Below, in pieces: positions 17,068-60,049 of a DNA stretch of 64,000 bases. Every line of letters begins with the position of its first letter. The first letter of the stretch is position 1. The notes beneath the pieces were generated by a model. That model did no database searches. It was not told the DNA's origin and worked only from the letters and a program-made list of their open reading frames with translations. Position numbers and translations under genes: made by a program. The DNA is from Escherichia coli (GTDB taxonomy: Bacteria > Pseudomonadota > Gammaproteobacteria > Enterobacterales > Enterobacteriaceae), in the NCBI RefSeq assembly GCF_001677475.2, contig NZ_CP012497.1. One strand, given 5' to 3'.

Positions 17068-17127
17068 ACAACCAGATGAGAAGTTACTTTGCATACCATT
17101 ACCTCCTGACAACGTAGGAGGGAACTT

Positions 17128-18487: not shown

Positions 18488-20101
18488 ATGGAACAGTTAA
18501 ATATCAATAAAGGGGTGACGATCAAGCCTGGGCTTGACGTGCTTCCCCCGCCAGTGACTGATGATGAATATCGCGCATTAATGGCCGGTGAGGACCGCTA
18601 TCTGATGACGGAATCCAACACCCTGGAGGAAATCGAGGCTACGTTCTTCTATGACACGCCGATCCACTGGTGTGCTACGGATTTACTGGAGGCGATTAGT
18701 TCTACTCGTTTGCAGTTACACCGGACCATGCAGGCATTTGTCCGGGCATTGAACCAGAAGCTGAATGGTACCGGAATCTCTGCGGGGAGTGATAAAACGG
18801 GGGAGGTGGCCCAGAGCGGCGCGCGCGCGATCGGCGGTGCTGAAATTGGCCGGGCACGTAACGTTAACGGGCTGCCGGTCCTGCCAGCCATTATTCCGCT
18901 CAGTGATGGTCAGACTATCAGCATTCTGTTTCATAGCCCGACAGCGGAAAACCGGATCACCAATAGCGATACGCTGGTTGCTTTCCAGTTCTTACTGAAT
19001 AAAAAAGACGTTACTCACACCGTTGCTCCGATGAGTGGACGTGATATGACGCTGGCGCAGGTCACCATGAAACTTGCCAACCTTGCAGAGAAAAACTCGG
19101 CAAAATTCCAGCGTGCGCAGAAGAAGAAAAAAGCCCTGGTTGATGAAATAACCCAACTACAGGCTGACAGTGACCAGAAAGAGGATGCCATGAGCGACCT
19201 CGCGGATCAGGTGGCAGCGGTAGAAGGGCAGAAGGTAGATCTGGAGCAGAAAATTAACGCTGTTGCATCGGAAGCGGATTCTCTTTATGAAGAGAATGAG
19301 CGTTTGCAGACGGAGATTGATCAGCTCAATCGCACAGGTGGGCGCGATACCATTGATCCAGCGGGGATGACTGGTGGGCACTCGCGCGCGCTGACGGATC
19401 GCCTTGCCAGTATCAAAAATCGTATGCATATGAACGGGGAAGTGACGCTCAGTAATGGAGCATCAATGAAGCAATTCATTGAGGACGGCGAAGGGTATAT
19501 CCAGTTAACCGATTCGGATGGCAGCGTGTACATGATCAAGGCTAAATCCATACAGGGTGTGGACATGGCAGATGCGATCGGCAAGCTGTTTAAAGCCTAT
19601 AAAGCGGGTAATGTATCGGAATACCTGGTCCAACCAGAAGAACATAAACCGGAAAACGTCGAACCTGAACCAGCGGAGGATACCGGTAGCTCTTCGCCTG
19701 AACCAGAAGTCTCTGTAGGTGCATATCGATATGCCCTGCAAATGCGTCCGGCGGCCCCTGGCGCAATACCTGAAGGTAACAAAGCAATTCTGCCGCGCCC
19801 TGATGAAGGTGACCCGTATTATGAATATGCACGCTACGGCATTGCTACTTACGATACCCCGCTTTCTGATCAGCAAATGAGTGAGTACGACCTGAAGTTA
19901 TTGCCTCGCGAGGATTCTTTCGACTTCCTGGCGAAGACACTTACTAATGGTCCGTTTGGCAAATATGCACAAAAAGCTCTGGAGCTGGCCACCAGCTCAC
20001 CAGACGAGTTCCGCGTAATGCTGAAAACTCAGTTTCAAAAAACTTTCCCCAATATTGCGTTTCCGGGGGCGCTGGCACCGAGAAAATGGTGCAGAGCATG
20101 A
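18488..20101 (+). CDS. darA: DarA-like antirestriction protein
   Basis: 537 aa; segment LANLAEKNSAKFQRAQKKKKAL is paralogous to Hdf; coiled-coil region. Confidence 0.5.
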   Translation: MEQLNINKGVTIKPGLDVLPPPVTDDEYRALMAGEDRYLMTESNTLEEIEATFFYDTPIHWCATDLLEAISSTRLQLHRTMQAFVRALNQKLNGTGISAGSDKTGEVAQSGARAIGGAEIGRARNVNGLPVLPAIIPLSDGQTISILFHSPTAENRITNSDTLVAFQFLLNKKDVTHTVAPMSGRDMTLAQVTMKLANLAEKNSAKFQRAQKKKKALVDEITQLQADSDQKEDAMSDLADQVAAVEGQKVDLEQKINAVASEADSLYEENERLQTEIDQLNRTGGRDTIDPAGMTGGHSRALTDRLASIKNRMHMNGEVTLSNGASMKQFIEDGEGYIQLTDSDGSVYMIKAKSIQGVDMADAIGKLFKAYKAGNVSEYLVQPEEHKPENVEPEPAEDTGSSSPEPEVSVGAYRYALQMRPAAPGAIPEGNKAILPRPDEGDPYYEYARYGIATYDTPLSDQQMSEYDLKLLPREDSFDFLAKTLTNGPFGKYAQKALELATSSPDEFRVMLKTQFQKTFPNIAFPGALAPRKWCRA

Positions 20102-20406
20102 TCAATGCATTGCAGGCCGAAGTCGGTGAGATTACTCAGCCAGAACCTGCCCCGGCACAGCCTGATGAAACGGTTAGCGAAGCAGATGCAGAGGCTAATA
20201 AAGCCATTGAATATCTCAATAACGTGATGGATATGCAAAGCACTGACATGGCGGAGATCCGTAACGCCCGGGGTAATGTCCGGGAAGCGATTGCAGCCCT
20301 TCAGGCTGCCGGGCGTTTTGAGGAAAACGAAGAGCTGGTTAATGGCGCTGCTCGCCACCTGGCTGATCTGCTGGTAGCAATCCAGAAAGCGGGGGTAGCG
20401 GCATGA
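20086..20406 (+). CDS. Small acidic protein (ddrA region)
   Basis: 106 aa ORF overlapping the darA-like stop. Confidence 0.3.
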   Translation: MVQSMINALQAEVGEITQPEPAPAQPDETVSEADAEANKAIEYLNNVMDMQSTDMAEIRNARGNVREAIAALQAAGRFEENEELVNGAARHLADLLVAIQKAGVAA

Positions 20407-20780: not shown

Positions 20781-22997
20781 ATGAGCTTAAGCGATCAGGT
20801 GGTAATTGCCACCAGCATAGAAACGCTGATCGAGCTGCTTAAGAACCTGCCCGATTATGGGCGGGTTTCGTATGTGGTGACAGCGAAGGGAGACGAGGTA
20901 AAAACAGCGTTTGATATCGTCGATGCCTCAGCTCTTTTGGTATCCAATACTCTGGATGGGAAAATTAATCCTGACTATCCCCAGGAACTTCAGCCGCGCG
21001 ACCGGACCCGCGCATCCAGCCTTCTTCAGGTTAACCAGATATCCAAAGATTTGCGGCCTGCTCAGCTTACCGATTCCGGTTTATCCAGCCATGGCGCGCC
21101 GATAATTGGTGAGGACAATGCCGTTGAGTCAGGTAATGGACGGACCATGGGAATCATTAAAGCCTATCAGGACGGCAATGCGGATCGGTATCGTGAGTAC
21201 CTGATTGAACATGCGACCGAATTCGGCATACGACCTGAAAAGGTTGAATCAATGACGGCTCCTGTATTGGTGCGCCGCCGGTTAACTAAGGTTGACCGCG
21301 TTCAGTTTGCCAAGGACTCAAATATTTCTGATCTTCAGGAAATGGCAGCCAGTGAAAAGGCTTTTGTTGATGCCGACAGCATAACACCGGCGATGATGGC
21401 GCTGTTTAATCCGTCAGAAAGCGGAGATCTGCTTAGCCGCAGTAATGACGCGTTTATTCGCGGATTCATGACGCAAGTTGGTGCCACACAGGCTGCTGGC
21501 CTTGTAACGGAAGATGGGCGACCAACGCGGCAACTTGTTGACCGTATACAAAACGCGATCTTTGCCAAGGCATATAAGGATGCGCGCCTGGTAAGGATGG
21601 TTGCAGAAGAACCTGATCCGGATATGCGTAATGTTCTGACGGCGCTTAATGCGGCAGCCAATGATTTTGTCCAGATGCAGGCTTTATCAGGAGAAGCGCA
21701 CAAGCAGGCTGTGACAACTATTGTTGATGGCATTGAGACAGCGGATAGCCTCGATAAAAAGGCGCTGGCGGCATTGAAAGATGCGGTAGACCTGGTAAGG
21801 CAATCGAAGGAGTCAGGCCAGCATATTACCGATGTTATTGCTCAGGGGGATATGTTCAGCGAAACGGCCCCGGAAGTGAAAGCACTCGCGTTGTTCATCG
21901 TCGCGAATAACCGTAGCGCGAAGCGTATGGCCACCGCCTTTAAGTTGATGGCTCAACGTATCAATGATGAGTTACAGCACCAGGGCCAGGCGCTGGGGGA
22001 TATGTTTGGCGGCGGCGATGTGTCGTTACAGGATATCCTTCGCCAGGTGTCTCAGGAACTGGAAAACGAAGGCATGCAAGGGATATCCGGCGGTCTTTTC
22101 GAGTCCGTTTCCGGCGGTAGTTACAACGGTGTTGCTCCATATACCAGCTTGCTATTACATCGGGCATCCGGCATCAAAGACATTATTCATCTGATCAGGC
22201 TGCTTTCCCGTACAGATCCCCAGGATGAACAGCTTGTACAAGTGCTTGCGCATTTTGTTCGAATGCCTGTTGCCGACGTGAATAAATGGTGCCGATTATT
22301 CGGTATCAGCAATTCGTTACTTCGCGGATTGTTAAATCACGCATCCTCCCTTGGGCGCGACGGCTTTGATGAGATAGCGCAGGCGATACAAAACGGAGAT
22401 ATGCCACCAGCTATTGACTGGTTTTCCATTCGCCCAACCAGGGTGAAAGCATTCCTTAGCGCGGCGCATTCGGCATCACCATTGGCAGAAATGGTTCAGA
22501 GGTTGTCGCTCATATTCACAGACCATACCGCGTTGGGTGATCTGACTCTGGACGAGATGAAAGAAGCCTCCATTCAGTGGGCCGATCAACAAAATGAGGT
22601 TAACTCAGACTTCTTGCCAGCATTCAGGAAGGCCGTTAGTAAAGCGGATGATTCCCGTGGAATTCTGAAGGCATTTAAGGCATTGCAAAGTCGGGTTAAT
22701 AAACATGTCGGTGATATCGATGGGGTAACGGCGGAAGGCAGGGATATTCTTAAAGAGCACGGCATAACGCCAGAGTTTATTGATGAGATCAGGACGGATA
22801 TGCAGCGTGAGGTCGTATCGTCCCTGCAAATTGTAGCCAGAGCGTTGGCGGATGCTAATCCGAAGAGTGCGGCCATTGTTAACCGGGTTATTGGTGATAT
22901 TGAAGCATCGGAGGGCATGGGGGCGCTGAAACTCTTCCTTTCGCGAGCGTTTAATCCTAACGGCAATATTCTCCCTGGCATTATTGGTGAGGTATGA
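20781..22997 (+). pseudogene. ddrB: ddrB-like gene, 5' part, interrupted by IS insertion
   Basis: 738 codons ending ...ILPGIIGEV followed by a stop inside the IS; the reading frame resumes exactly after the IS. Confidence 0.55.
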
Positions 22998-23085
22998 GAC
23001 GACAATAACTCAGTCCGCCTGGCGCCGATTATTCTGGCCGGTTTTGTAACCTGAGTGTCATTTACATGATCCAACAGGAAATGGC

Positions 23086-24585
23086 GTGACGCTCAATACT
23101 TCTCAGGTCAGTTACTATATGACTCAGCGTAAGAAAGGTATAACTCAGCATATCTCGGCCATGAAGGCTGGTATCTCAGTCCGTTCTGGTCGTCGGATCG
23201 AAAAAGGAGAGTGGGCAAAAAACAGTGTTCGGCACTGGCGCACACGCAAAGATCCTCTGGAAGCTGTGTGGGACAGCATGCTTGTTCCTCTGTTGAAAGA
23301 GAGGCCGGCTCTGACACCAACAACTCTACTGGAGATGCTACAGGATAAATATCCCGGCCAGTACCCCAACAGCCTTCGAAGAACAATGCAACGGCGGGTT
23401 CGCGAATGGAAACTACAGTATGGTACAGAGCAGGAGGTCATGTTCCGCCAGCAACATCAGCCCGGCCTGCGAGGCCTGTCGGACTTTACTGAACTGAAAG
23501 GTGTAGTTGTCACCATCGCCGGTAAGTTGTTGGCGCATAAGTTGTATCACTTCCGTCTGGAATGGAGCCACTGGAGCTGGATGCGGGTTGTTCTGGGTGG
23601 TGAGAGCTTCTCTGCTCTGGCTGAAGGCCTGCAGGAAGCCCTCGGACAACTGGGCGGAGTGCCGGTAGAACATAAAACGGACAGCCTGAGGGCAGCATGG
23701 AAACAACAGGGCGAAGATGGACGCCGCGAGCTGACTGAGCGTTATGCTACTCTCTGTCAGCACTACGGAATGCAGGGCGTACACAATAATGCCGGTCGGG
23801 GCCACGAAAATGGCTCGGTTGAAAGTGCCCACGGACATCTGAAAAGGCGTATCTGTCAGGCGCTGATACTGCGGGGCAGTAACGACTTCAGCACCATAGA
23901 AGAATATCAGGCCTTCATCACTCAGCAGGTTATGCGGCACAACCGTAACAATCAGGATCTGGTCAAGGAAGAACGTCTTCATCTGAAACCGCTGCCGCTT
24001 CGTCGCAGTGCTGACTATGATGAGCTGACTGTGAGGGTTAGTCGCAGCAGTACCATCAATGTGAAGCACGTCGTCTACAGCGTACCTTCCCGGCTTGTAG
24101 GTCAACTGTTACGGGTCAGGTTATGGGACGATCGTCTGAGCTGTTACGTTGGCAGCAGCGAGGTCATGAGCTGCCCTCGCGTCAGACCAGAAAAAGGGAA
24201 GACGCGGGCCCGTCGTATCGACTTCCGACATGTGATCGACAGTCTGGCAAAAAAGCCCGGTGCGTTCTGCCATGCAACGCTGAGAAATGACATCCTGCCG
24301 GACGATGAATGGCGGAGGCTGTGGCGTCGCTTATGTAATCATCTGGAGCCCGATATGGCAGGAAGGCTGATGGTACATGCCCTGAAACTGGCTGCAGGAT
24401 ACGACGATATCTCAGTCGTGGCAAAAGGTATGGAGCAGATGCTGAATACCCCGGGAAACGTGGATCTGCACCGGCTGATGCGCTTCCTGGGTATAAAAGA
24501 AAAGGCGTTGCCGGTAGTCAATGTGATACAGCATAACCTGAGCAGTTATGAGCAACTACTGCGTGGCAAGGGAGGTTCGCAGTGA
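23086..24585 (+). CDS. istA: IS21-family transposase IstA
   Basis: 499 aa; N-terminal HTH and integrase-core-like region; followed by overlapping istB. Confidence 0.85.
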   Translation: MTLNTSQVSYYMTQRKKGITQHISAMKAGISVRSGRRIEKGEWAKNSVRHWRTRKDPLEAVWDSMLVPLLKERPALTPTTLLEMLQDKYPGQYPNSLRRTMQRRVREWKLQYGTEQEVMFRQQHQPGLRGLSDFTELKGVVVTIAGKLLAHKLYHFRLEWSHWSWMRVVLGGESFSALAEGLQEALGQLGGVPVEHKTDSLRAAWKQQGEDGRRELTERYATLCQHYGMQGVHNNAGRGHENGSVESAHGHLKRRICQALILRGSNDFSTIEEYQAFITQQVMRHNRNNQDLVKEERLHLKPLPLRRSADYDELTVRVSRSSTINVKHVVYSVPSRLVGQLLRVRLWDDRLSCYVGSSEVMSCPRVRPEKGKTRARRIDFRHVIDSLAKKPGAFCHATLRNDILPDDEWRRLWRRLCNHLEPDMAGRLMVHALKLAAGYDDISVVAKGMEQMLNTPGNVDLHRLMRFLGIKEKALPVVNVIQHNLSSYEQLLRGKGGSQ

Positions 24586-25337
24586 GCAATATCCATCACC
24601 TTGAACATAGCCTGCGTAAACTACGCCTGACACGAGTTGGAGCTGAATGGCACGCTCTGGAAAAACGAGCGCTGGCAGAAGGCTGGACACCATCGCGCTA
24701 TCTTCTGACGCTATGCAATGAAGAACTCCTGTGGCGCGAGAGTGAAAAACTGCGTCGTTATAAAAAGGAGGCCCGGTTGCCAGTTGCCAAAACGCTGAGC
24801 GAATACGACTTCAGTCAGGTGCCGGAACTGAATGGAGCTCAGTTCCGGCAACTCTGTGAAACGACAGACTGGGTTGATGCAGGAGAAAACGTTCTGCTGT
24901 TCGGAGCCAGCGGGTTGGGGAAAAGCCATCTGGCGGCAGCGATCGTGGATGGCGTAGTAGGTCAGGGCTACCGGGCCCGGTTCTACAGCGCAGGAGAGCT
25001 GTTGCAGGAACTACGTAAAGCCAGAGCTCAGTTGAAACTGAATGAGCTGCTACTGAAACTGGATCGCTACCGGGTGATAGTGGTGGATGATCTTGGCTAT
25101 GTCAAACGCGATAGTGCCGAAACGGGTGTGCTGTTCGAGTTAATAGCGCATCGCTATGAACGTGGGAGCCTGGTGATAACCAGTAACCATCCGTTCAGCA
25201 TGTGGGGCAGCATCTTCGTGGATGAGACTATGGCGGTGGCTGCGGCAGACAGGCTGATCCATCACGGATATATGTTCGAACTGAAAGGGGAAAGCTACAG
25301 GAAAAAGACAGCGAAGGCAGTAACAAGCGCGACTTGA
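24582..25337 (+). CDS. istB: IS21-family ATP-binding helper IstB
   Basis: 251 aa; Walker A GASGLGKSHLAAA and Walker B VIVVDDLGY. Confidence 0.85.
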   Translation: MSNIHHLEHSLRKLRLTRVGAEWHALEKRALAEGWTPSRYLLTLCNEELLWRESEKLRRYKKEARLPVAKTLSEYDFSQVPELNGAQFRQLCETTDWVDAGENVLLFGASGLGKSHLAAAIVDGVVGQGYRARFYSAGELLQELRKARAQLKLNELLLKLDRYRVIVVDDLGYVKRDSAETGVLFELIAHRYERGSLVITSNHPFSMWGSIFVDETMAVAAADRLIHHGYMFELKGESYRKKTAKAVTSAT

Positions 25338-25389
25338 TGTCGCCCTGAAGGGTGCGGCCAGTATAGTTGGCGCGAGTCGGCAAAACTAG

Positions 25390-26184
25390 TTGACGTCTAA
25401 TAGTGAGGCTAAAAAGTATGTCAGTGAAGAAGAACTTGAGCAGCTTGACCAACTACTTAAGCGATTCTCATATAACCCGCAGACACGCTGGCAAATGAAT
25501 CAGCGAAGTATGGGTTCGGTCCACGAGAAAGTGTTATCTGCCATGAACAGTGCGATCGCAAACTCATCCGTATCTGAAGAAAAAGCTCTTGAGTGGGCCG
25601 ACTCTTTTATCACAGAAGAAGTGGAAGAAGCCCGCGCTGGACAGAATGGTGGGATAGACCTGCGCAAGGAACTTGCTGATATTTATCGCCTGACCGGCGG
25701 GAAAATATCGACCTTATCAAAGGTAGTTCACCACCAGGGAAGGGCATATGCAAATCTAAATGGTGTTGTTGCTGTCAATTTGAACGATGAAAATGCAAGT
25801 GCACTGTGGCACGAGCTGGGTCATCATCTTGAGTACAGTAACCCTGGTTTGTTAGAGAAAGCCCGGTCATTCCTGAAGGCCAATGTTGAAGGGGATAAGC
25901 CATCTTTCGTCAATATCGGTGGGCGTGGCAAGCCTGAATGGTGCTTCAGATCTCGATTGAGTAATATTTATATGGCGAAGGTATACCCGCCAGCCTCAGT
26001 AAGTAACACCGGGAAAATTCGGCAGAAATCACCGACTATTTCCAAAACGTCAGCAACGGAAGTATTCTCTATGGCTCTTCAGTTGTATCATGACAAAGAG
26101 GCCGCTGCCGCATCACTGATGAATGGTGACGGATTGCTGGAACTGTTATTAGGTGTGGCAAAGGAGCTAAATAATGCAGATTAA
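25390..26184 (+). pseudogene. ddrB: ddrB-like gene, 3' part
   Basis: Frame continues from the upstream part once the IS and one copy of GTGAGG are removed (...GIIGE|AKKYVSEEELEQ...). Confidence 0.5.
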
Positions 26185-26482
26185 AATCGCAGCGCCATTA
26201 GGTGGAGATGCCATTATCGAATTTGATGATAATGAAGAAGTTTCCGGGCGTTTAAGCATTATCTCCGGTGACATTACCGAGGACATGATCGCTGAAGCCA
26301 TAGCTGGAGCAAATCCCAATAGCTATATGGGATTCGTTAACACCCTTGATGCTCCCGCAAGTGATGTTCTCCGAACGCTGCATCTTTACGCTGGCTGGTT
26401 TGTTGATTGGCCAGCAGTAGATGGTGGCGATGAGGACGACGACGATGATTTTGGTGATCATGTAGACCAGATCGTATATTGA
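26174..26482 (+). CDS. Small acidic protein
   Basis: 102 aa with a Asp/Glu-rich C-terminus (DGGDEDDDDDFGD); last gene of the plus-strand operon. Confidence 0.35.
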   Translation: MQIKIAAPLGGDAIIEFDDNEEVSGRLSIISGDITEDMIAEAIAGANPNSYMGFVNTLDAPASDVLRTLHLYAGWFVDWPAVDGGDEDDDDDFGDHVDQIVY

Positions 26483-26484
26483 AG

Positions 26485-26510
26485 AAATCCCGCCAATCGG
26501 CGGGATTTTT
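26485..26510. terminator. Rho-independent terminator (bidirectional position)
   Basis: AAATCCCGCC-AATC-GGCGGGATTTTT hairpin with T-run between convergent genes. Confidence 0.5.
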
Positions 26511-26513
26511 ACC

Positions 26514-27608
26514 TCACGAGAAGCTTTTTTCTGATGTCAGCCAACAGTGCTCGTGCAAATCTCTTGGTGGTTTTTCGACAAACGCCTCTTCAGCCACATC
26601 CTGCCAGGGGATTTGTTTAGCCCATTCAGTTATAGCGTTATGGTTTGCCGAGAATAACGGTATTGTATAGGCCTTCAGCCAGTCTAATGTGCTGGAGTTG
26701 TGTTTTTGAGCGTGATGTTTCGCATGGTGTTTGGCGATCACGATCGTAGGCACTACCCATTTACTACCGTCAGTCATTGTGAAGTGCATATTACGGGGAA
26801 CAGATGACTTTTCCATCAACTCCCGAATCCCGGGGAATTTCCCCAAGATCAATCGGCGATATTCATCGCTATTGCGTCCACCAAACTCTTTGGCTTTGAA
26901 TTCAAGATATGCTTCAGAAACGAGAGGTGAATCCTCTGTGTTTAGAGTTATCGCCGTGAAAAAACCAGCAGGATTGTTTTTACTATGGGCCAACCGGTGA
27001 TGCGAATCATAAAAGTACCCTTTCTCGCGTTCCGATGGTTTCGACAGCAACAGCAGGCGCGAGTCATAATTGGTTAAATTGCCAGTTATCACTGCATGAG
27101 CGCGATCGCTGATTTCCGCCGAGTTAATAACGATGAAAAGATCGTGCGGTCCAGTAAAACCAGCCAGAGACTCTTCGTTATTCAGACAATAGGTTATATA
27201 GACGCATCCCCATGTTTCACTGATATGCACCAACCCTTTGTCAGGGTGTATTCTGAAATAATTGCCAAGAAAAGGGTGTTTTTGGGTAACTCGCTCCCAA
27301 TAACGGAACATATAGTCAATTATTGTTTTTCGACTATCGTTAATCGCAGGAGAAACAACCACTGTACGGGAACACGAATACAGTATTGTTTGCAGGATGC
27401 TAATCACTGCCACAATAGAGGTTTCCCCAATACCATGTGGTGTGGTGGCAGTGACTTTGGCTCCGGTGTTCTTTATCGCGTTAATAATTTTTGCTTGATG
27501 AGGTGTTAACTCAATATCAAGCAACTCTTTTGCTGCCAGTTCCCAATTGTCTTTATACCGTTCTATCAGTGCTAACCAGGCAGATTCATTCTGTATACGA
27601 TTAATCAC
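26514..27608 (-). CDS. Terminase-large-subunit (PacB) ATPase-domain paralogue with degenerate Walker A/B; no nuclease domain
   Basis: 364 aa; alignable with the PacB N-terminal 250 aa in this window (e.g. GYFYDSHHRLA...FTAITLNTEDSPLV vs [11 protein letters not shown]...[14 protein letters not shown]); Walker A HGIGETS vs PacB HGTGKSD; Walker B VINSAE vs IIDEAS. Confidence 0.6.
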   Translation of the reverse strand: MINRIQNESAWLALIERYKDNWELAAKELLDIELTPHQAKIINAIKNTGAKVTATTPHGIGETSIVAVISILQTILYSCSRTVVVSPAINDSRKTIIDYMFRYWERVTQKHPFLGNYFRIHPDKGLVHISETWGCVYITYCLNNEESLAGFTGPHDLFIVINSAEISDRAHAVITGNLTNYDSRLLLLSKPSEREKGYFYDSHHRLAHSKNNPAGFFTAITLNTEDSPLVSEAYLEFKAKEFGGRNSDEYRRLILGKFPGIRELMEKSSVPRNMHFTMTDGSKWVVPTIVIAKHHAKHHAQKHNSSTLDWLKAYTIPLFSANHNAITEWAKQIPWQDVAEEAFVEKPPRDLHEHCWLTSEKSFS

Positions 27609-40770: not shown

Positions 40771-41015
40771 AAAAGCGATACTACACAGTAAAGCATGGGA
40801 CGCTACGAGCATTACAAGAGTTTGCTGATAAGCATAACGTTGAGGTGCGCAGGGAAGGGGGAAGTAAAGCTCTGCGGATGTACCGTCCGGACGGAAAATG
40901 GCGGACGGTCGTCGATTTCAAAACTAACAGCGTTCCCCAGGGCGTCCGCGACCGGGCATTCGAAGAATGGGAGCAAATCATCATAGATAATGCATTGCTC
41001 CTGAATATAGATTGA
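40767..41015 (+). CDS. Lxc/Bof-like small protein (by size and position)
   Basis: 82 aa, 4-bp overlap with the upstream ORF. Confidence 0.35.
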   Translation: MKKRYYTVKHGTLRALQEFADKHNVEVRREGGSKALRMYRPDGKWRTVVDFKTNSVPQGVRDRAFEEWEQIIIDNALLLNID

Positions 41016-41155
41016 TATACTTAAAGGTTGCGGTTACTGGCCCCTCTGATAGCCATACTCCATGAAGAGCAAACTTGTGAAGTTCCATATCTTCATGCGT
41101 TTCTTGGTCATGGAGTATTTATATTGTATAGGTAGATATTGTTTGAGTGCAGTTA

Positions 41156-41500
41156 TCACTGCATCGAGATGTAATTAGGACATGGTAATATACATTTCTT
41201 GAACGTACTATCTTTACCGGAGAACTTTATTCTCACATAAGGGGATAATGAAATATCTACCCAGAATGTGATGTCATTATGAATTCCTAACTTTTTGTAT
41301 ATTTTGTATTTCTGAAAAGAAACTGTTTTAATGCTGCGAAATCGGGACTTTGATATCTGAGTGATATTATATCCCTTTAATAATAACTCAAGTACGCTGC
41401 ATTCAGCTTCTGTCAATGATGCAGATATCCACACATGAACTGTAATATCATGCCTTTCTATATGTGCTTTTATATAACAAGTTTCTTTTTTATTATTCAT
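41156..41500 (-). CDS. LuxR/GerE-type HTH transcriptional regulator (small, no receiver domain)
   Basis: 114 aa; LTEAECSVLELLLKGYNITQISKSRFRSIKTVSFQKYKIYKKLGI matches the LuxR C-terminal HTH; AT-rich context. Confidence 0.55.
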   Translation of the reverse strand: MNNKKETCYIKAHIERHDITVHVWISASLTEAECSVLELLLKGYNITQISKSRFRSIKTVSFQKYKIYKKLGIHNDITFWVDISLSPYVRIKFSGKDSTFKKCILPCPNYISMQ

Positions 41501-41604
41501 TTTGTTAATATATATATCAAAAGATAGAAATAATGGAATATCGGTGTCATGGTAAAGAGCAGTCCATCCATGGTTCTGCTCTTTGTTCTTAGATGCTATT
41601 TAGT

Positions 41605-44600
41605 TCAGAAGGTATACTTCACACCCAACATTGCAGATGTGTCGTTATACCCTTTGTCACCGACTTGAACACCTACATTCCCCCACAGGTTCAGTCTGGA
41701 ATTTATCTGCCCCTCAACACCGGTTTTTATTTCTCCGATATTACGGGCACCGTCCTGATGTACCGTCACACCATTCATACGAGTACCAAAATCACGGGTG
41801 TTATGCAGCCAGTTCACTTCCACAAATGGGCTGAATTCCCGGGATTTGCCTTCATCTATACGACTGTGGCTTTTAATCCATGTTTTCACGCCCAGACGGG
41901 TACGGACATTACCATCTCCGGTGCTTTCAACACGGGTACCGTTGCTTTCGCGATGTTCGTCCGCTTTAACACCCATCCAGATGACCTGAGCCTGAGGCTG
42001 GACATACCACTCATTCAAACCACCTTGGCTGCCCGTAAACTCACCAGCCTTCCAGGTATAACCAGTTTCCAGTGATGCAGTAAGTCCTTTTGATTTCCAG
42101 GATTCACTCTGCAATCCATCACCTTTAACATAGTTATCAAACCAGCTGTACTGTGCCCAAGAGTCTAGGTAAGCCCCGTTATGTGTTTCATCATTGGCAT
42201 ACCAGGTGGCATACAGCCCAGTGCTGTAACCATTCACACTACCTTTTGAACGATATCCTGTGCGCACAGATTCTGTATTATTGTGGTCATTACCGTATCC
42301 GGCCATTAAGCCAAGATGCCAGCGATCCGTTTTATTCCAACCCCACTGTGCTATATCGCCGCCCAGTTGCATAACATAACGGTTGCTTTGTGTTTTTAAC
42401 TGGTTGCTTCCGTCGCGCCAGCGATTGTGTCCACCCTCATGACGCATCCACATGCTTGTAGTTTTCAATTCACCGGTAATCACATCGGTATACTGCATTT
42501 GCCCCTGACGTTCGTGTAGGCGAGTCACGAACATAGTATTTGCAGCAGCAATGTTTGCCGTATAGCTACCAGCTTCTGGGCGAAGATCATTGTCACCTGG
42601 TGTTGGGGTCGGATTTGGCTCCGGGTCCGGGTTCGGAGTTGGATCCTCAGGTTGTTTGCCACTAGTTAGGTACCAGTTGCCATTTTTATCGCCTTGCCCC
42701 CGCCCAAGAGTGTAATCATAAGCACCAGCCGCAATTCGGCCAACTTGTACAAAGTCACCGTTAGATTGACCATCAACCTGGATAATGTTGATGCCATTGA
42801 GTGTTTGTGCCCCAATACCACCAACGTTGTTTACGGAAACAAAGGTTTTACCCTCTGTATTTCCTTTTACAACCAACTTATCGATTGGAGATGTGTCGTC
42901 ACCAAGAACGCCTGAAAAGTAGATATAGCCATTTTCGCCAGTATAATCACCATTAATTGTTAAAGTGTTTTTTGCATCGCTGCCCAAATATATAGAGCCA
43001 TTATTATTAAGATGAGCAACATCCGAATCGCTAACCATATTCCAGATGCTGTTTTTAGCTAAATTAACAATGCCACCATTATACGCGGTTCCAGTCCAGT
43101 TGGAATTTTCTAATGAAAGATTGGCAATACTGTTACTATCAGCGCGAATATCGCCATTAAAGGAAGTATTCTTGACTGTAACATCAACGTTCCCTCCCAC
43201 ACCGGCATCATTACTGGTTGAGAAGATGAATGTGCCGTTATTCTTTATTTGGCTGCCATCTAACGTGGCGGAAATAGCACCACCATTAGCATTAAAGTTA
43301 TATCTAGTTTCGCTAATCATCACCCCATTCTCTTGGGTAAGCTCAACTTTTGCATTATTGGCAGCGACTACAGAGTCAGCCTCTTTTCCTGATACATGAA
43401 TGGATGCATTATTGCCACTAATAACTGTATTGTCATCACTGACCCATATTCCATGAGCATAATCACCGCTTGTTGTAATCGATGAACCAGAACCAAGTGT
43501 AATTTTTGCAGCTGAATTTGCTGTTGCTCCATATGAGTTTAGCCCCTTAGTAATAATCTGGGCTGTATGGGCATTAACAGTGGCTTCATTTTGTGCATTT
43601 ATACCGTATGAGTCAGTACCGGCTGTATTAATAGCTATTTGCTCGAAGCTAATATCAGCTACTTTACCATGCCCCCACACACCTATTGACTGATCACCTA
43701 ATGTGGCGATTGTTGATGTTCCCGTCAGCTCTACGCGTGAATCAGGTGCTGAGTCTGAGGGATTTAAAGCCGTAACATATATACCTTTGGCTGATGTGCC
43801 ATTTGTTTTTATTGAGATACTATCACCCGTTATTATACCACCATTACCACCGGTGATATGGATGGTATTAGCCTGCGTCCCTGATGTTTCAAGAGATGCA
43901 TTTACTCCAAGATTTATATTCCCATTATTAGAGGCAGTTACGGCATGAGCTTGTTTGCCAGAAGTGGTTACCTGGAGTCCTTTAGATACAGATATACTAG
44001 AGTTATTGCCATCTGCACGTAAACCATAGCCATTTTGGCCTGAAGTGGAAATATGAACATCAGCTAATTCAGCTGAGCCAGCTGACGATGCAGATACTCC
44101 CCAAGCCCCTGTTCCATCAGTTTTAATCTGCGTATTTGTTAGTGAAACATAACCGTTGTTTTCGGCAGATATGCCACGAGCTCCCCATGCTTGTGATGGT
44201 TTTTTATCCCCCAGAGTGGTAATGGTTGAGTCGCTAATTACTATTTTGCTATTTATGCCAGAGCTAACAATACCTCTGGCATTATCTCCAGATGTGGTAA
44301 TGTTAACTTTATTTAAACTGGCTTGGCCTCCATTTAAAATAGAAACACCACTAGCATTTACACCAGATGTGTTAATATCACCTTGTTCAACAGTTAGTGA
44401 AGATTTGTCAACATTAATCCCTGTAGCGTTTATCCCACTTGTTGTAATTGACATACCGTTAGCGATAGTCATTGAAGAATTATTATCAAGTGAAATGCCA
44501 GAGGCGTTTTTGCCTTTTGTGGTTATTGTAATCCCACCTTGAGAGTTAATTTTAGACCCACTGGATATATTAACTCCGTTTGCCTTATCACCTTCTGTAG

Positions 44601-44859
44601 ATAACGTCACTGTACCTTCGGTAGTTAGTTCACCTGAATTTGTGACAGAGATCGCATATCCATTACTTCCTGTATTACTGCCCGTATTAATATCGAGGTT
44701 ATCTTTATTAACTTGAACATCATTATCAATTTTAATAGCAGTTGTTGAAGCGTAAGCATTTGAAAATAATGCGCCGATTATAGCTGCCAGTAGGGTCAAG
44801 CGAGGAGAGTTCCCCCCTGAAGAGCTATTTTTTTTATTATTATAAACAGAAAGTGACAT
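41605..44859 (-). CDS. AIDA-I-type autotransporter adhesin (type Va secretion)
   Basis: 1084 aa; N-terminal signal peptide; about 700 aa of imperfect Gly/Ser/Thr/Asn-rich repeats; Pro-rich linker PEDPTPNPDPEPNPTPTPG; C-terminal beta-barrel ending GVKYTF. Confidence 0.85.
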   Translation of the reverse strand: MSLSVYNNKKNSSSGGNSPRLTLLAAIIGALFSNAYASTTAIKIDNDVQVNKDNLDINTGSNTGSNGYAISVTNSGELTTEGTVTLSTEGDKANGVNISSGSKINSQGGITITTKGKNASGISLDNNSSMTIANGMSITTSGINATGINVDKSSLTVEQGDINTSGVNASGVSILNGGQASLNKVNITTSGDNARGIVSSGINSKIVISDSTITTLGDKKPSQAWGARGISAENNGYVSLTNTQIKTDGTGAWGVSASSAGSAELADVHISTSGQNGYGLRADGNNSSISVSKGLQVTTSGKQAHAVTASNNGNINLGVNASLETSGTQANTIHITGGNGGIITGDSISIKTNGTSAKGIYVTALNPSDSAPDSRVELTGTSTIATLGDQSIGVWGHGKVADISFEQIAINTAGTDSYGINAQNEATVNAHTAQIITKGLNSYGATANSAAKITLGSGSSITTSGDYAHGIWVSDDNTVISGNNASIHVSGKEADSVVAANNAKVELTQENGVMISETRYNFNANGGAISATLDGSQIKNNGTFIFSTSNDAGVGGNVDVTVKNTSFNGDIRADSNSIANLSLENSNWTGTAYNGGIVNLAKNSIWNMVSDSDVAHLNNNGSIYLGSDAKNTLTINGDYTGENGYIYFSGVLGDDTSPIDKLVVKGNTEGKTFVSVNNVGGIGAQTLNGINIIQVDGQSNGDFVQVGRIAAGAYDYTLGRGQGDKNGNWYLTSGKQPEDPTPNPDPEPNPTPTPGDNDLRPEAGSYTANIAAANTMFVTRLHERQGQMQYTDVITGELKTTSMWMRHEGGHNRWRDGSNQLKTQSNRYVMQLGGDIAQWGWNKTDRWHLGLMAGYGNDHNNTESVRTGYRSKGSVNGYSTGLYATWYANDETHNGAYLDSWAQYSWFDNYVKGDGLQSESWKSKGLTASLETGYTWKAGEFTGSQGGLNEWYVQPQAQVIWMGVKADEHRESNGTRVESTGDGNVRTRLGVKTWIKSHSRIDEGKSREFSPFVEVNWLHNTRDFGTRMNGVTVHQDGARNIGEIKTGVEGQINSRLNLWGNVGVQVGDKGYNDTSAMLGVKYTF

Positions 44860-45343
44860 AGATAACCTCGAGTTTATACATTATCCGGATTTATAATAAC
44901 AGATGTTTTAGTTTACTGTGTGATTATGTTCTCGCAAATATTCATGCATTTCGCTGCACAAAATCGGAAAAATAATAAATAAGGAGGTTGAATAAATCAA
45001 TTATTCACTTTAAATAAATTTCAAATGAAAATCATTCAACAAATATATGCGATTAATGTGCATCGTTACATAAAAATCATGGAGACGCATTGAATTATTA
45101 TTCAATTATTGATTATGAAACAACCAGCTTAATATGCGTGCTATTAATTCCTCCATTTATCACCTTTATATCTACTGGTAATAGATGCTGAGGCTTGGTT
45201 AGTAAAATGTCTTCATTTGGTGTTGATGTTAATTTGTGTTTTTTATTGTTTTGTTTTTGTTTTTTATGTGTTTTGCAAATAATAATTTTTGGTTACCTTA
45301 AGTAGTAATTTGTAATTAGCTGCTTGGTGTAATAAGTTTGAAA

Positions 45344-46012
45344 TTAAAGGTAATCATATTTACCTGTGAGTAAGCCTTGCGGCACACGTGTTTCTCCCAT
45401 TCGTTGAGTAGCATTAATAATATTGATGAATGGCTCTATCAGCGAGGGCTCACGCTGCGTATTAATCCTACCAGCCATTGCCTGAATGTAGTGCGCGCTC
45501 ACCACGTTGTTGTATTCCGTTGCAAAGCAACATAGTAGCGTCAGAACGTGCTCTGTGGTTATTTCGCTCCAGTTGATGTTGAAAAATTCATCGCCTTTTT
45601 TGTCGTGTTCGGAATCGAAGATGCTTTGATGGAGAATGTACTTGCCGGACTCCTTGCGTGGTAACTTGATCGCTTTCTGGCGTTCCAGCTCCTTGTAAAT
45701 CTGCATTGCTTCAATCAGTACCGGCCTGCCGTTCATGAAGGGATCGCGCAACCTTACACGCTGGCCAACTCGACCAGTAATAAAGCTGTTTTCCTCTTCC
45801 ACCAGCACGATAAAACCCTTTTCCTCTTTTTCTCGCAATTCGCGCAGCAGCTGGAGTTCCATGTCGCGGCGGCGTTCAGGGTAGCTGGTCCGCTCAGCCA
45901 TTATCAGCTCGTTGTTGATCCATGCAGCAGTCATTGACGCCGGTTTGCCGACGTTCATCGAAACAACGCATATTTTCTTATCCATAGCTCCCCCTACAAA
46001 AAGAAAAGCCAC
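45344..46012 (-). CDS. Hypothetical protein (mat position)
   Basis: 222-aa ORF between the autotransporter island and ref. Confidence 0.35.
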   Translation of the reverse strand: MAFLFVGGAMDKKICVVSMNVGKPASMTAAWINNELIMAERTSYPERRRDMELQLLRELREKEEKGFIVLVEEENSFITGRVGQRVRLRDPFMNGRPVLIEAMQIYKELERQKAIKLPRKESGKYILHQSIFDSEHDKKGDEFFNINWSEITTEHVLTLLCCFATEYNNVVSAHYIQAMAGRINTQREPSLIEPFINIINATQRMGETRVPQGLLTGKYDYL

Positions 46013-49197: not shown

Positions 49198-49231
49198 ATA
49201 ACTTCGTATAATGTATGCTATACGAAGTTAT
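49198..49231. other. loxP site
   Basis: Exact ATAACTTCGTATA-ATGTATGC-TATACGAAGTTAT (13-bp inverted repeats, 8-bp spacer). Confidence 0.95.
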
Positions 49232-49276
49232 TAGGTCTGAAGAGGAGTTTACGTCCAGCTGCGCATAAAAAACAAG

Positions 49277-49291
49277 AATTATTAGAGCAAT
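49277..49291. promoter_or_regulatory. C1 operator (minus orientation)
   Basis: Reverse complement ATTGCTCTAATAATT. Confidence 0.55.
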
Positions 49292-49357
49292 ATATTTTGA
49301 GAGATAAATCCCACTCCACCAGCCAAAAACTGGATTGTTTTTCATAGTTGTTTGACA

Positions 49358-49373
49358 ATTGCTCTAATAAATT
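49358..49373. promoter_or_regulatory. C1 operator (plus orientation), upstream of coi-c1
   Basis: ATTGCTCTAATAAATT, near-exact consensus. Confidence 0.6.
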
Positions 49374-49612
49374 ATAGTTTTGCCACCGTTTCGTAATACG
49401 ACTTTGGATTCACTATTTAATGTGTCTTCAGCGTTGTAGAGCGGCTCAGAAGGAAATGAGCAAACAGGGAAACCTTATACAACGGCATTACAGCTATGCA
49501 TTGCTCATCTTACACACAGCGCAATGTTGATAGATAACCCCAGCATGGAACATGGGTGAAACAGTAGGTCAGAGCTTCAGGCTCTGTGTTGTCAATACAG
49601 TGAGGCATAATT

Positions 49613-49822
49613 ATGGCTTTCATTCCACCAACCATCGACGATGTTAGACATTGCTCTAACGCTTTATCTGTAGACCCCGCCGAAACCGACGCTGCTCGCG
49701 CCATTGCTGAACACTACTCAAAGATATCCAATCAGGAGTACCGCATCACCCAAGACGACCTGGATGACCTCACTGACACAATCGAATATCTCATGGCAAC
49801 TAACCAGTTAGACTCACAATAA
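49613..49822 (+). CDS. coi: Coi-like (C1 inactivator), by size and position
   Basis: 69 aa immediately upstream of c1. Confidence 0.55.
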   Translation: MAFIPPTIDDVRHCSNALSVDPAETDAARAIAEHYSKISNQEYRITQDDLDDLTDTIEYLMATNQLDSQ

Positions 49823-49932
49823 ATGCACTAATAAATCTATTATTTTTGTTTGATCCCTCTATAATATAGGTCAGTAATGACCGGTTTTCTCAGCCGGGCG
49901 TTATTGACCATGTCAATTCTGGAGGAGGATCA

Positions 49933-50784
49933 ATGATAAATTATGTCTACGGCGAACAACTGTACCAGGAGTTCGTCAGCTTCAGGGATCTCTTTCTAAA
50001 AAAAGCTGTTGCACGCGCCCAACACGTTGATGCCGCCAGCGACGGTCGTCCTGTACGCCCGGTTGTCGTTCTACCGTTCAAAGAAACAGACAGCATTCAG
50101 GCTGAAATTGATAAATGGACTTTAATGGCGCGGGAACTGGAACAGTACCCAGACCTCAATATCCCAAAGACTATTTTATATCCTGTGCCTAACATCCTTC
50201 GCGGTGTACGTAAGGTTACGACTTATCAGACAGAAGCTGTGAACAGCGTCAACATGACCGCTGGCCGCATTATTCATCTGATTGATAAGGACATTCGCAT
50301 CCAAAAAAGCGCGGGGATCAATGAGCACAGTGCGAAATACATAGAGAACCTGGAAGCAACAAAAGAGCTAATGAAGCAGTACCCAGAGGATGAAAAATTC
50401 CGTATGCGCGTACACGGCTTTAGCGAAACAATGCTGCGCGTCCACTACATTTCCAGTAGCCCTAACTACAATGATGGTAAATCAGTTAGTTACCATGTGC
50501 CACTGTGTGGCGTGTTTATCTGCGATGAAACTCTCCGTGATGGAATTATCATCAACGGTGAATTCGAAAAAGCAAAATTTAGCCTTTATGACTCCATAGA
50601 ACCGATCATCTGCGACCGCTGGCCGCAAGCAAAAATATATCGCCTGGCAGATATTGAAAATGTAAAAAAACAAATTGCCATCACTCGCGAAGAGAAAAAG
50701 GTTAAGTCAGCCGCATCAGTTACGCGCAGCCGTAAAACTAAGAAGGGGCAGCCAGTAAACGACAACCCCGAAAGCGCGCAATAA
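49933..50784 (+). CDS. c1: C1 immunity repressor
   Basis: 283 aa, MINYVYGEQLYQEFVSFRDLFLKKAVARAQ...; matching operators throughout the window. Confidence 0.85.
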   Translation: MINYVYGEQLYQEFVSFRDLFLKKAVARAQHVDAASDGRPVRPVVVLPFKETDSIQAEIDKWTLMARELEQYPDLNIPKTILYPVPNILRGVRKVTTYQTEAVNSVNMTAGRIIHLIDKDIRIQKSAGINEHSAKYIENLEATKELMKQYPEDEKFRMRVHGFSETMLRVHYISSSPNYNDGKSVSYHVPLCGVFICDETLRDGIIINGEFEKAKFSLYDSIEPIICDRWPQAKIYRLADIENVKKQIAITREEKKVKSAASVTRSRKTKKGQPVNDNPESAQ

Positions 50785-50816
50785 ATTATGCCCGGCATCA
50801 ACCGGGCATTCTTCCA

Positions 50817-51932
50817 TTATTCAGCCGCCACCGGTTTTAACAAGCCAGCATCGAGCAGTTTACGCGTCAACCACTGTTGGCCTTTCCCCGTTAATTGAGG
50901 CGTCAGCCGTATCTGATAGCCATCTTCATCATCCAGCACCACTTCTCTCACTGTGAAATATCCGGCGTTTATGTACTGCTGAAACGGTACATTTTTACGT
51001 CCGCCGGACGCAATCAGGATGCCGTTCTCCCGTAACCAGGCAAACAGCGCATTTTGCTTAAGTCCAACAACCTTTGCAAAATTCCCAATCAGGATCCCCT
51101 TAGCCACTGATACCCGGTCGGCAAAATCGACTTTAGGGGCTGCGGCCACCAGCTGCTGATTTAGCTGGTGGGTTTTCTGTTCCAGAAGTTGCTTTTGTTC
51201 AGCCAGCTCGGCAGCCAGGCGCAGAGCTTCTGGAAGCGTCTGGGGGATTGCGATCGGTTGCTGTTCTTTTTGTCGGAAGTAGCTGTCTTCCAGTTTTTCA
51301 AAGAATGCCCATGCCTGATCTGTTTCGAGCATTTTTGCGTGACGGGCAGCTCCTCGTTCCGTCCAGAGGATGAGTGAGCGGGCTTTAGGAGAGATGGGAT
51401 TTTGTGAGTTACTTAAAGTCACCCGCAAATTGTTCAAATCATCTCCAATAACTTTATAGAAATGCTTGCCTTCACAAAAACGTTCAGCATTACGGGAAAA
51501 GTTCTTCTTGATGTTATCCGCATCGGTCCCATACCCCTTAGCAAGGATCTTGGTTGTCACTACACGCACTCCCAGCCATTCCAGAACGGGAATTTCATCA
51601 GACTGATTCTGAACAACCACCAGCTCTGACTCCTGAACTGAAGGTGCATGAACTTTTTCTGATTTAACGTTAGTTGCTTTCATTCTGTGTGCCTCCTTGC
51701 GTGTTTCGGCTGCGACGGTTGCGTAATTCAGATGCCCCTGTTCGAGCAGGTATTCGCGGATATCAGACAGCAGGATGCGGTGAACCGCGTTCTTGTCCTT
51801 TCTCCGGTAAAGTTGTTTGGTGATCATGAAGTAGTTGGCTATAACGCCTGGTATATCCCTGGTACTGATACAAGCAGTGTGCTGTTCAATTGCCTCGATC
51901 ATCTCTTCACGGGTGACTAATGACGTTCTCAT
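50817..51932 (-). CDS. ant1: Antirepressor Ant1-like (KilA-C / antirepressor C-terminal domain)
   Basis: 371 aa from MRTSLVTREEM...; its start overlaps the icd stop (ATGA); C-terminal DFADRVSVAKGILIGNFAKVVGLKQNALFAWLRENGIL. Confidence 0.6.
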   Translation of the reverse strand: MRTSLVTREEMIEAIEQHTACISTRDIPGVIANYFMITKQLYRRKDKNAVHRILLSDIREYLLEQGHLNYATVAAETRKEAHRMKATNVKSEKVHAPSVQESELVVVQNQSDEIPVLEWLGVRVVTTKILAKGYGTDADNIKKNFSRNAERFCEGKHFYKVIGDDLNNLRVTLSNSQNPISPKARSLILWTERGAARHAKMLETDQAWAFFEKLEDSYFRQKEQQPIAIPQTLPEALRLAAELAEQKQLLEQKTHQLNQQLVAAAPKVDFADRVSVAKGILIGNFAKVVGLKQNALFAWLRENGILIASGGRKNVPFQQYINAGYFTVREVVLDDEDGYQIRLTPQLTGKGQQWLTRKLLDAGLLKPVAAE

Positions 51933-52150
51933 AGTCCCTCCTGAGCACAAGCGTTTACAGGGGGGCACCAGTAACTGAGAGAATTGCGCAAATCGGTAGA
52001 AAAACGGGCGGAGAAAATACAGGGAGCATCCGGAAGCTGAGAACGTGCCTCATCTTCTGTTGGTGCGATAACGAAGTGATAGTGACGTTTCTGGCAGGAG
52101 TAAAAGCGCCAGATGAATTCAGGGTGAGCTGGGGTAGGGGTAGTAGCCAT
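51929..52150 (-). CDS. icd: Icd-like small protein
   Basis: 73 aa (MATTPTPAHPEFIWRFY...), strong SD AAGGAGG 8 nt upstream; translationally coupled to ant. Confidence 0.55.
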   Translation of the reverse strand: MATTPTPAHPEFIWRFYSCQKRHYHFVIAPTEDEARSQLPDAPCIFSARFSTDLRNSLSYWCPPVNACAQEGL

Positions 52151-52159
52151 AATGGCAGC

Positions 52160-52468
52160 CTCCTTAGACGTTGGTATGTAACCACCGCAGAAGAGACCAA
52201 TCTTGCTGGCGGTGGACTGTACGGAGTTGGCCTTACTGGCGTCCAAGGTAACCAGCCTACCCGAAGGTAGCCCCATACAGCCCACCATTGTAGAGGTGTG
52301 CGTGTACGCCGATACAAAAAAAGACGCGAGCGGCGTCTGTATCGCCTTAGACTTAAGCGGGAGGCCAATCCCGGCACCCGTTTTAATGAGGTGCCTGATC
52401 AGCATAAACCGAAAATGCCTCAAGGCGCAAGAGGTCAGGTTCAATGTAACATCGGTAGTTAAAAAACA
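52160..52468 (-). ncRNA. Candidate c4-like antisense RNA / structured leader of the icd-ant operon
   Basis: About 300 bp non-coding region upstream of icd, with a terminator-like hairpin and a repeat of the icd RBS-region sequence (CCTTAGAC). Confidence 0.3.
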
Positions 52469-52469
52469 C

Positions 52470-52486
52470 AATTTATTAGAGCAAAT
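52470..52486. promoter_or_regulatory. C1 operator variant upstream of the icd-ant region
   Basis: Reverse complement ATTTGCTCTAATAAATT. Confidence 0.45.
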
Positions 52487-52488
52487 AT

Positions 52489-55166: not shown

Positions 55167-55251
55167 TTATGCTTCCTTTCGTAAAAACTCTTTTTGACGC
55201 GAGGGTAACGAAAGTCACATGTCAAAAGGCCCGGAACGGGCAAGCAATCAA

Positions 55252-55704
55252 TCAGATACGTGCGGATGTGGCATTACCGTAATGACGGTGCTGACGGGCC
55301 ACCTTATTGAAAAGTTGACGCGCCATTACCCAAGGCTGGTGCTCCCGGCGTTCCTTTTCGTCCTGCGTCATATAGAGTTCGTTCTGGAGTTTTTCATCAA
55401 ACCGGCGCGGCGCGCGGCTGCGGCGAAAGAATTCAGGATTCAGAGAGTGGATCTGAAATCTACGTGGGCGTGTACTGTCATCAATCAAAACAGACGAATA
55501 CTTAGACACAGCGATAGCCTTTAAGCGCAGATAAACGTCGCGCTTATCGACATCCAGATGCGGGTATTCCTTTTCAAGGATTGCTGCGAGTTCTTTCGCT
55601 GATAGAAGAGATTTAGTGCGGATCATGTAATCCGCAATCTCATACGATGTTATTCGTGAGTGATTTATTTCCATGAAGTGGCGTCCCTGCCAGTTAAGTA
55701 ACAT
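55252..55704 (-). CDS. lpa: Lpa-like late promoter activator (by size and position)
   Basis: 150 aa directly upstream of pacA; preceded by a C1 operator. Confidence 0.55.
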   Translation of the reverse strand: MLLNWQGRHFMEINHSRITSYEIADYMIRTKSLLSAKELAAILEKEYPHLDVDKRDVYLRLKAIAVSKYSSVLIDDSTRPRRFQIHSLNPEFFRRSRAPRRFDEKLQNELYMTQDEKERREHQPWVMARQLFNKVARQHRHYGNATSARI

Positions 55705-55776
55705 CCTGTCACCTACTGATTAGCCCATGTCAACTAATCAACGTGCAATATAATACACTAGATTAAAGAAATATCA

Positions 55777-55791: not shown

Positions 55792-55792
55792 T

Positions 55793-56836: not shown

Positions 56837-56863
56837 ATCACACCTTTAATCACTGATTGGGCT

Positions 56864-60046: not shown

Positions 60047-60049
60047 GGT

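Follow-up and report, generated by a model that had tools for sequence, protein, structure and literature searches.

The ddrB gene of a P1-like phage-plasmid from Escherichia coli is split at codon 737/738 by a complete insertion sequence of the IS21 family. ISEc10 has very probably transposed into this gene, leaving a predicted 738-residue product of the 5' part, a 3' part that is most likely silent, and a DdrB function that is expected to be lost or changed. The DNA analysed, here called the window, is a stretch of 64,000 nucleotides. By comparison of its sequence it is assigned to a P1-like phage-plasmid that is colinear with P1, and the genes around the insertion follow the order found in P1, hdf-darA-ddrA-ddrB-hxr. 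The features are as follows.

17081–17099, + strand: LPdar, the P1 late promoter of the lydA-lydB-hdf-darA-ddrA-ddrB-hxr operon (19 nt, 100% identical to LPdar in NC_005856)
20781–22997, + strand: 5' part of ddrB, predicted 738 residues, 80.3 kDa, from the list of open reading frames (phrog_2299 positions 1–737)
22987–22992: target-site duplication GTGAGG, left copy (single copy at the P1 site)
22993–25402, + strand: ISEc10 (IS21 family), one complete copy of 2410 bp, codirectional with the dar operon
22993–23040, + strand: left terminal inverted repeat of ISEc10, from a repeat search (48 nt, 71% complementary)
23086–24585, + strand: istA, DDE transposase, 499 residues, intact (NF033546, IS21 family transposase, 226 bits)
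24582–25337, + strand: istB, AAA+ helper ATPase, 251 residues, intact (NF038214, IstB, 266.7 bits)
25355–25402, − strand: right terminal inverted repeat of ISEc10, from the repeat search, containing TTGACG at 25390–25395
25403–25408: target-site duplication GTGAGG, right copy, read from the sequence
25408–26184, + strand: 3' part of ddrB, codons 738–995 (258 residues), predicted zincin-like metallopeptidase domain with HELGH at residues 872–876
26174–26482, + strand: hxr, which closes the operon and now lies downstream of the insertion (98% identical to P1 hxr; phrog_2292)

Identity of the inserted element

The original prediction of an IS21-family istA-istB element at 22993–25402 is exact in its coordinates. 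Across the whole of its 2410 bp (100%) the element shares 99.9% identity with copies annotated in RefSeq as ISEc10 family; the E. coli OkiPb01695 copy differs from it at 3 nucleotides. The tips of the element, TATGAGACG...CGTCTAATA, recur unchanged in five further ISEc10 copies whose contexts are unrelated. It is thus identified by similarity as ISEc10.

Both genes are full length and occur in the order expected of the IS21 family, with the transposase followed by the helper ATPase. The scores listed above compare with NCBIfam equivalog cut-offs of 160 bits for NF033546 and 200 bits for NF038214. The coordinates of istA equal those of RefSeq istA in other ISEc10 copies, with 2–4 amino acid differences, and istB differs from the other copies at one residue. 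The start of istB overlaps the stop of istA at GTGA, and is preceded by a ribosome-binding site, GGGAGG. The terminal inverted repeats are present and imperfect, as had been proposed, although they are 48 nt long rather than about 49; 34 of the 48 positions are complementary, for which the binomial chance is about 3e-11. Compared with other ISEc10 copies, the length, the ends, the gene coordinates and the intact reading frames are all the same, and only the insertion site differs.

The window holds a single copy of ISEc10. Many E. coli genomes carry the element in multiple copies, at up to 14 places per genome.

The insertion site and the reconstructed gene

A perfect GTGAGG stands on either side of ISEc10; six bases would agree by chance with a probability of 1/4096. 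At the homologous site P1 has this hexamer only once, and it is precisely these 6 bp that both BLAST segments against P1 share. Target duplications at other ISEc10 copies are 4, 5, 6 and 6 bp, so that the duplication seen here lies within the range of 4–6 bp. The range for the IS21 family is 4–8 bp. A duplication of 5 bp has been described for IS5376/IS21 (PMC10122671).

When the element and one copy of GTGAGG are removed in silico, the flanking reading frames rejoin into a single ORF of 2988 nt and 995 codons, reading ILPGIIGE immediately before the junction and AKKYVSEEELEQ immediately after it. A gene of about 1000 codons had been expected from excision. The rejoined protein aligns with P1 DdrB over its full length with zero gaps and 981 of 995 residues identical (98.6%; 14 residues differ), and both halves match one PHROG, phrog_2299, at positions 1–737 and 738–995 of 995. 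P1 DdrB (YP_006491.1) belongs to the darA operon and the Dar antirestriction system, and shares with the window gene its neighbours, its late promoter, a ddrB-ParB domain and an HExxH motif. The similarity and the gene context together indicate that the interrupted gene is a true ddrB orthologue; the P1 gene is uninterrupted, while that in the window is split.

Searches of NCBIfam and of PDB sequences with the two halves of DdrB gave no matches.

The insertion appears to be recent, as originally suggested, because the duplication is perfect, the element is intact, both halves of ddrB are free of indels and stops when set against P1, and the junction was found in no other record searched. A 400-nt junction query was covered on both sides in none of 5426 complete E. 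coli genomes; the junction is in none of the 483 PLSDB records that contain this part of ddrB; and exact 32-nt junction patterns had no matches in IMG/VR or in JGI metagenomes.

Insertion sequences have been found in related phages. In the P1 reference, IS1 lies between isaA and isaB, and the res-mod region holds IS5. RCS47 and SJ46 carry an IS200/IS605 insQ in the same operon, between ddrA and ddrB and a few bases upstream of ddrB. All of these are intergenic or in other genes and belong to IS families other than that of ISEc10, whereas ISEc10 in the window breaks the ddrB frame. Both the element and the gene were already known, and the allele is a routine insertion, a mutation of an ordinary sort.

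The two parts of DdrB

The 5' ORF retains its own start, the ddrB-ParB domain (residues 36–167; Pfam PF18763, 6e-39) and 74% of the protein. It is 97.9% identical, with no gaps, to nucleotides 1–2212 of P1 ddrB. The 737 native codons are followed by GTA (Val) and a TGA stop, both of which come from the opening bases of the element.

The C-terminal 258 residues of DdrB are predicted to adopt a zincin fold and to form a zincin-like metallopeptidase, for which peptidase activity has been proposed (PMC5512222). A confident structure model of this domain matches PPEP-3, PPEP-2, MtfA and lethal factor, a likeness to the Pro-Pro endopeptidase or anthrax lethal factor-like M34 fold. A word-indexed search for DdrB homologues returned only eight near-identical or partial fragments, and the alignment of the peptidase domain was built from an exhaustive homologue search. 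In 26 homologues at 22–40% identity, H872, E873 and H876 of the HExxH motif are invariant. The result agrees with the published assignment of a metallopeptidase (MPTase) domain to the C-terminus of DdrB (PMC5512222), and zincin-like MPTase domains in the polyvalent proteins of phages and plasmids share the HExxH (Iyer et al. 2017, PMC5512222).

The break lies just upstream of this domain, within a Pro/Gly/Asn-rich stretch, NPNGNILPGIIGE. For the 3' part, a search for in-frame start codons preceded by a ribosome-binding site found none. An ORF listed from a TTG at 25390 (25390–26184) was considered as a restart of this half and rejected, as the call is purely mechanical and offers no usable start. 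The metallopeptidase domain is certainly cut off from DdrB.

Transcription across the insertion

The element had been described as facing outward within the operon. This has little support: its orientation is that of the operon, and a scan of the + strand for sigma-70 promoters found no outward site. The right end does contain an outward −35-like TTGACG, for which the best −10 in the flank matches at only 3/6 positions. An outward promoter from ISEc10 into the flank is thus unsupported. In IS21 the right end reportedly carries a −35 box and the left end a −10 box, which form a promoter when the ends abut (PMC10122671). Here TTGACG lies 8–13 nt from the right tip, and if the ends are abutted with a spacer of 1–3 nt, GACAAT (4/6) falls at a spacing of 16–18 nt, a consensus match only.

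Neither within ISEc10 nor beyond it did the + strand show a convincing terminator, and polarity caused by a terminator was rejected. Read-through from istAB could still transcribe both the 3' half of ddrB and hxr, which overlaps the 3' end of ddrB and has its own ribosome-binding site (AAGGAG).

Proposed event and alternative explanations

Very probably, one active-looking copy of ISEc10 jumped into ddrB of a P1-like phage-plasmid, where a staggered cut of the target by IstA and IstB would have produced the 6-bp duplication GTGAGG. The 5' part would then be transcribed from LPdar and translated from its own start, stopping one codon into the element to give 738 residues that include the ddrB-ParB domain. 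The remaining 258 codons would be left without a place to start translation, and most likely they are silent. Carriage as a plasmid prophage would probably leave the insertion neutral, since expression of the dar operon is confined to late lytic growth. For the phage, the expected effect is that DdrB function is lost or altered, and a polar reduction of hxr is possible. P1 DdrB is packaged in virions and contributes to DarB loading and antirestriction (PMC9024508, PMC12810830); its reported role, in Table 1 of PMC9024508, is that it "aids DarB addition to capsid". An effect on the protection against EcoB/EcoK-type restriction would therefore be expected.

It had been concluded that the gene is inactivated by the insertion. 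Inactivation is likely, with some reserve, given that the 738-residue ORF is close in size to a processed form of the protein. P1 DdrB is reported to be processed to a 76-kDa polypeptide of about 700 residues before it is packaged into P1 heads; the packaged fragment is predicted to be the N-terminal, ParB-containing part, and processing by the C-terminal MPTase as an autoprotease is a proposal of the same work (PMC5512222). The truncated ORF encodes 80.3 kDa, and the computed mass of residues 1–700 is 76.3 kDa. The truncated DdrB may thus keep function, and it is possible, if on balance doubtful, that the insertion is functionally mild: the 738-residue product would mimic processed DdrB and would still be packaged and active, with the Dar phenotype largely retained. 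The position of the break fits this, as remote homology to the peptidase domain begins about 30–50 residues past it. However, helices predicted for the 30 residues that follow the break (pLDDT 75–79) are part of the C-terminal model; moreover, the processing site of DdrB is unmapped and its packaged half only predicted (PMC5512222). In phage N4, encapsidation of vRNAP requires the MPTase-containing region (PMC5512222), and the DdrB domain may likewise be needed before cleavage.

The whole dar operon could also be degenerating, with selection relaxed in the plasmid lifestyle and the insertion as one of several lesions. We consider this unlikely. There is a second change in the operon, the loss of 1 nt in darA at about 20066–20070, which shortens DarA from 639 to 537 residues; across this site, no identical sequence occurs in any of 466 PLSDB relatives; and the IS200/IS605 elements upstream of ddrB in other P1-like phages point the same way. 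But the darA change is a contraction from G6 to G5 in a homopolymer relative to the closest relative, which is a typical sequencing or assembly error, while hdf, ddrA, darB, ulx, lydA and lydB are full length and free of gaps, and neither half of ddrB has further lesions. A copy of ISEc10 from elsewhere, wrongly placed in ddrB by the assembler, is very improbable. Multicopy repeats of this kind can confuse assemblers, but an artefact would not join both complete ends of the element to two halves of one gene, nor would it yield a perfect 6-bp duplication of a target that is single-copy in P1. The exact duplication leads us to reject it.

Implications

Transposition of ISEc10 into ddrB, the preferred reading, has a direct consequence for annotation: the ORFs at 20781–22997 and 25390–26184 are best annotated as a single ddrB pseudogene that ISEc10 interrupts, instead of as a pair of hypothetical proteins. 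It is a further case of a phage-plasmid that carries and spreads an insertion sequence, with the cost borne by an accessory antirestriction gene that is non-essential for plaque formation (PMC10695390).

The break separates the ParB-containing part of DdrB from the metallopeptidase domain, and so provides a natural truncation allele with which to ask what the peptidase does. Tentatively, the insertion point may nearly coincide with the border between the N-terminal part that is packaged and the autoprotease at the C-terminus, making the allele a natural "pre-processed" DdrB. Packaging of an active 738-residue product would mean that DdrB can load and function without its metallopeptidase domain; the opposite result would mean that the domain is required ahead of cleavage. 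In both cases the answer would tell which half of DdrB goes into the capsid, a question raised by PMC5512222.

Identity and boundaries of the insertion

The presence of an insertion sequence within ddrB is confirmed, and the interpretation given in the original prediction is supported with two caveats, which concern the inactivation of the gene and the description of the element as outward-facing. Both the ORF list and the raw sequence place ORFs of 499 and 251 residues between two ddrB ORFs on the same strand.

ORFs of the interrupted gene
20781-22997, + strand, 5' ddrB ORF, 738 aa (ORF list and raw sequence)
25390-26184, + strand, 3' ddrB ORF as listed (ORF list)

The insert occupies 22993-25402 (2410 bp), beginning with TATGAGACG and ending with CGTCTAATA. 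No inverted repeat in the region is longer than the one formed by its ends, 48 nt with 34/48 matched (binomial chance about 3e-11), close to the 49 bp or so that had been predicted. As was also predicted, the insert is immediately bordered on either side by GTGAGG (22987-22992 and 25403-25408). The first and last 20 bases are identical in five copies of ISEc10 from unrelated contexts, with one base different in a nested, degraded copy, and four of the five fetched copies have flanking duplications of their own (4, 5, 6 and 6 bp). The boundaries and the 6-bp duplication are therefore the normal product of ISEc10.

Among 5426 complete genomes of E. coli searched by megablast, the whole 2410 bp recurs at up to 99.9% identity; 898 genomes have a match and 525 a near-full copy; all the full-length copies among those listed are annotated as ISEc10 family. 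Against the NCBIfam equivalogs, IstA reaches 226 bits with the IS21 transposase model (cut-off 160) and IstB 266.7 bits with the IstB model (cut-off 200), which bears out the assignment as a 2.4-kb istA-istB element of the IS21 family. Both proteins are full length and differ by 1-4 residues from other copies, and istB starts at a GTG overlapping the istA stop. No other copy occurs in the window.

The interrupted gene

Excision of 22993-25408 (the IS and one repeat copy) followed by translation recovers a single ORF of 2988 nt, as anticipated. Its product is identical to P1 DdrB (YP_006491.1, 995 aa) at 981/995 positions over the full length without gaps, and is thus homologous to a single protein; the two halves match phrog_2299 at positions 1-737 and 738-995. 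P1 has a single GTGAGG at the homologous point (...ATTGGTGAGGCTAAAAAG...), and when the whole window is compared with P1 by BLAST, the two segments flanking the IS overlap by exactly these 6 bp. In the same comparison the window and P1 are colinear, in opposite orientations; lydA, lydB, hdf, ddrA, darB, ulx and hxr can each be aligned over their full length with no gaps. The late promoter of the operon is also conserved:

17081-17099, LPdar late promoter, 100% conserved relative to P1

These observations identify the element as a P1-like phage-plasmid and the gene as ddrB itself and more than merely ddrB-like. The P1 ORF iddB, which lies inside ddrB on the opposite strand, has an intact counterpart of 132 aa at 21335-21733 (- strand); this is upstream of the IS, so that the insertion does not affect it.

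Predicted consequences for ddrB and hxr

The frame is broken at codon 737/738. The upstream ORF retains its own start and 737 native codons; the junction and the end of the IS then supply GTA TGA, so that the predicted product is 738 aa long (80.3 kDa) and keeps the ddrB-ParB domain (PF18763, residues 36-167, 6e-39). The motif HELGH, at residues 872-876, is encoded by the 258 downstream codons. Searched exhaustively with HMMER, this fragment has 391 remote relatives, in which homology starts 30-50 residues past the break point. Both the position of the domain and the length of the protein vary among them, so that the C-terminal part behaves like a domain in its own right. For the 3' fragment we found no in-frame start accompanied by a ribosome-binding site, and it is therefore most likely untranslated.

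P1 virions contain DdrB, which is listed as an aid in adding DarB to the capsid (PMC9024508, Table 1). Along with DarB and Ulx, it has a bearing on EcoB/EcoK restriction (PMC12810830). Plaques can form without ddrB, which is not essential (PMC10695390). Iyer et al. reported that DdrB is processed before packaging to a 76-kDa form of roughly 700 aa, and proposed that the C-terminal peptidase cleaves and the N-terminal part is packaged (PMC5512222). The predicted truncated product is within about 4 kDa of this processed form. Thus insertional inactivation, as originally predicted, is most likely but short of certain: the 80.3-kDa ParB-containing product could still work, which we consider rather unlikely.

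The following gene, hxr, overlaps the end of ddrB. It has its own ribosome-binding site (AAGGAG), and there is no convincing + strand terminator in or after the IS; a polar effect on hxr is therefore uncertain.

The IS and the operon have the same orientation, so that late transcripts from LPdar should extend into istAB. IS21 carries a -35 box at its right end and a -10 box at its left end, forming a promoter on abutment (PMC10122671, PMC9330008). A -35-like TTGACG of the IS21 type is present at 25390-25395, and with the ends abutted would pair with GACAAT at a spacing of 16-18 nt (a consensus match). In the present flank the best -10 candidate matches 3/6, and a promoter scan found no outward promoter there. 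The suggestion of an outward-facing element therefore has little support, there being no sign that the IS drives downstream genes.

Neighbouring differences from P1

Relative to its relatives, darA (18488-20406) has lost one base at about 20066-20070, where the window has G5, the closest plasmid relative G6 and P1 GGGTGG. The frame shifts at codon 527 to give a 537-aa ORF, compared to 639 aa for DarA, and the rest of the gene becomes a separate ORF (20086-20406). The 466 PLSDB relatives include none with an identical sequence across the site. Either the key protein of Dar assembly carries a real slippage mutation, or the lost base is a sequencing error in a homopolymer.

In P1 a defence system, the type III restriction-modification genes res/mod (EcoPI, with IS5), fills the slot that is taken up here, at 41007-45470, by different DNA with an adhesin-like cargo. 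At 26481-27599 a 364-aa gene takes the place of the P1 isaB-IS1 segment. The P1-like genome MH422554 shares this arrangement, and its annotation calls the gene a terminase large subunit.

Genes in the replaced segments
26514-27608, - strand, 364-aa gene, phrog_5902, function unknown, weak match to the terminase large subunit family
41156-41500, - strand, LuxR-type HTH regulator, 114 aa, within the 41007-45470 replacement
41605-44859, - strand, AIDA-I-type autotransporter gene, 1084 aa, beta-barrel domain TIGR01414, 412 bits

The comparison covered P1 positions 1-50000, with 49215-64000 of the window lying outside it; 1-1980 of the window (the sim region side) does not match this first half of P1. 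One short 85% match to the P1 ant region, at 50833-51167, suggests a second, diverged antirepressor-like segment.

Age of the insertion and other IS in P1-type genomes

Only 3 nt separate the ISEc10 copy from its closest relatives, and neither ddrB half has an indel or stop. The IS-ddrB junction is absent from the 5426 E. coli genomes, PLSDB (483 records with this part of ddrB), IMG/VR and JGI metagenomes; among the intact ddrB genes of PLSDB, the nearest has 99.2% identity. Together with the perfect duplication, these features point to a recent event, in keeping with the original prediction.

The IS and the gene are both known, and only the insertion site is new. IS insertions are familiar in P1-type genomes, the P1 reference itself carrying IS1 and IS5. 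The P1-like phage-plasmid RCS47 (FO818745.1, 1310-2518) has an insQ of the IS200/IS605 family in the short ddrA-ddrB gap, leaving ddrB intact, and SJ46 has the same arrangement upstream of ddrB. The same operon has therefore been struck independently by a different IS family.
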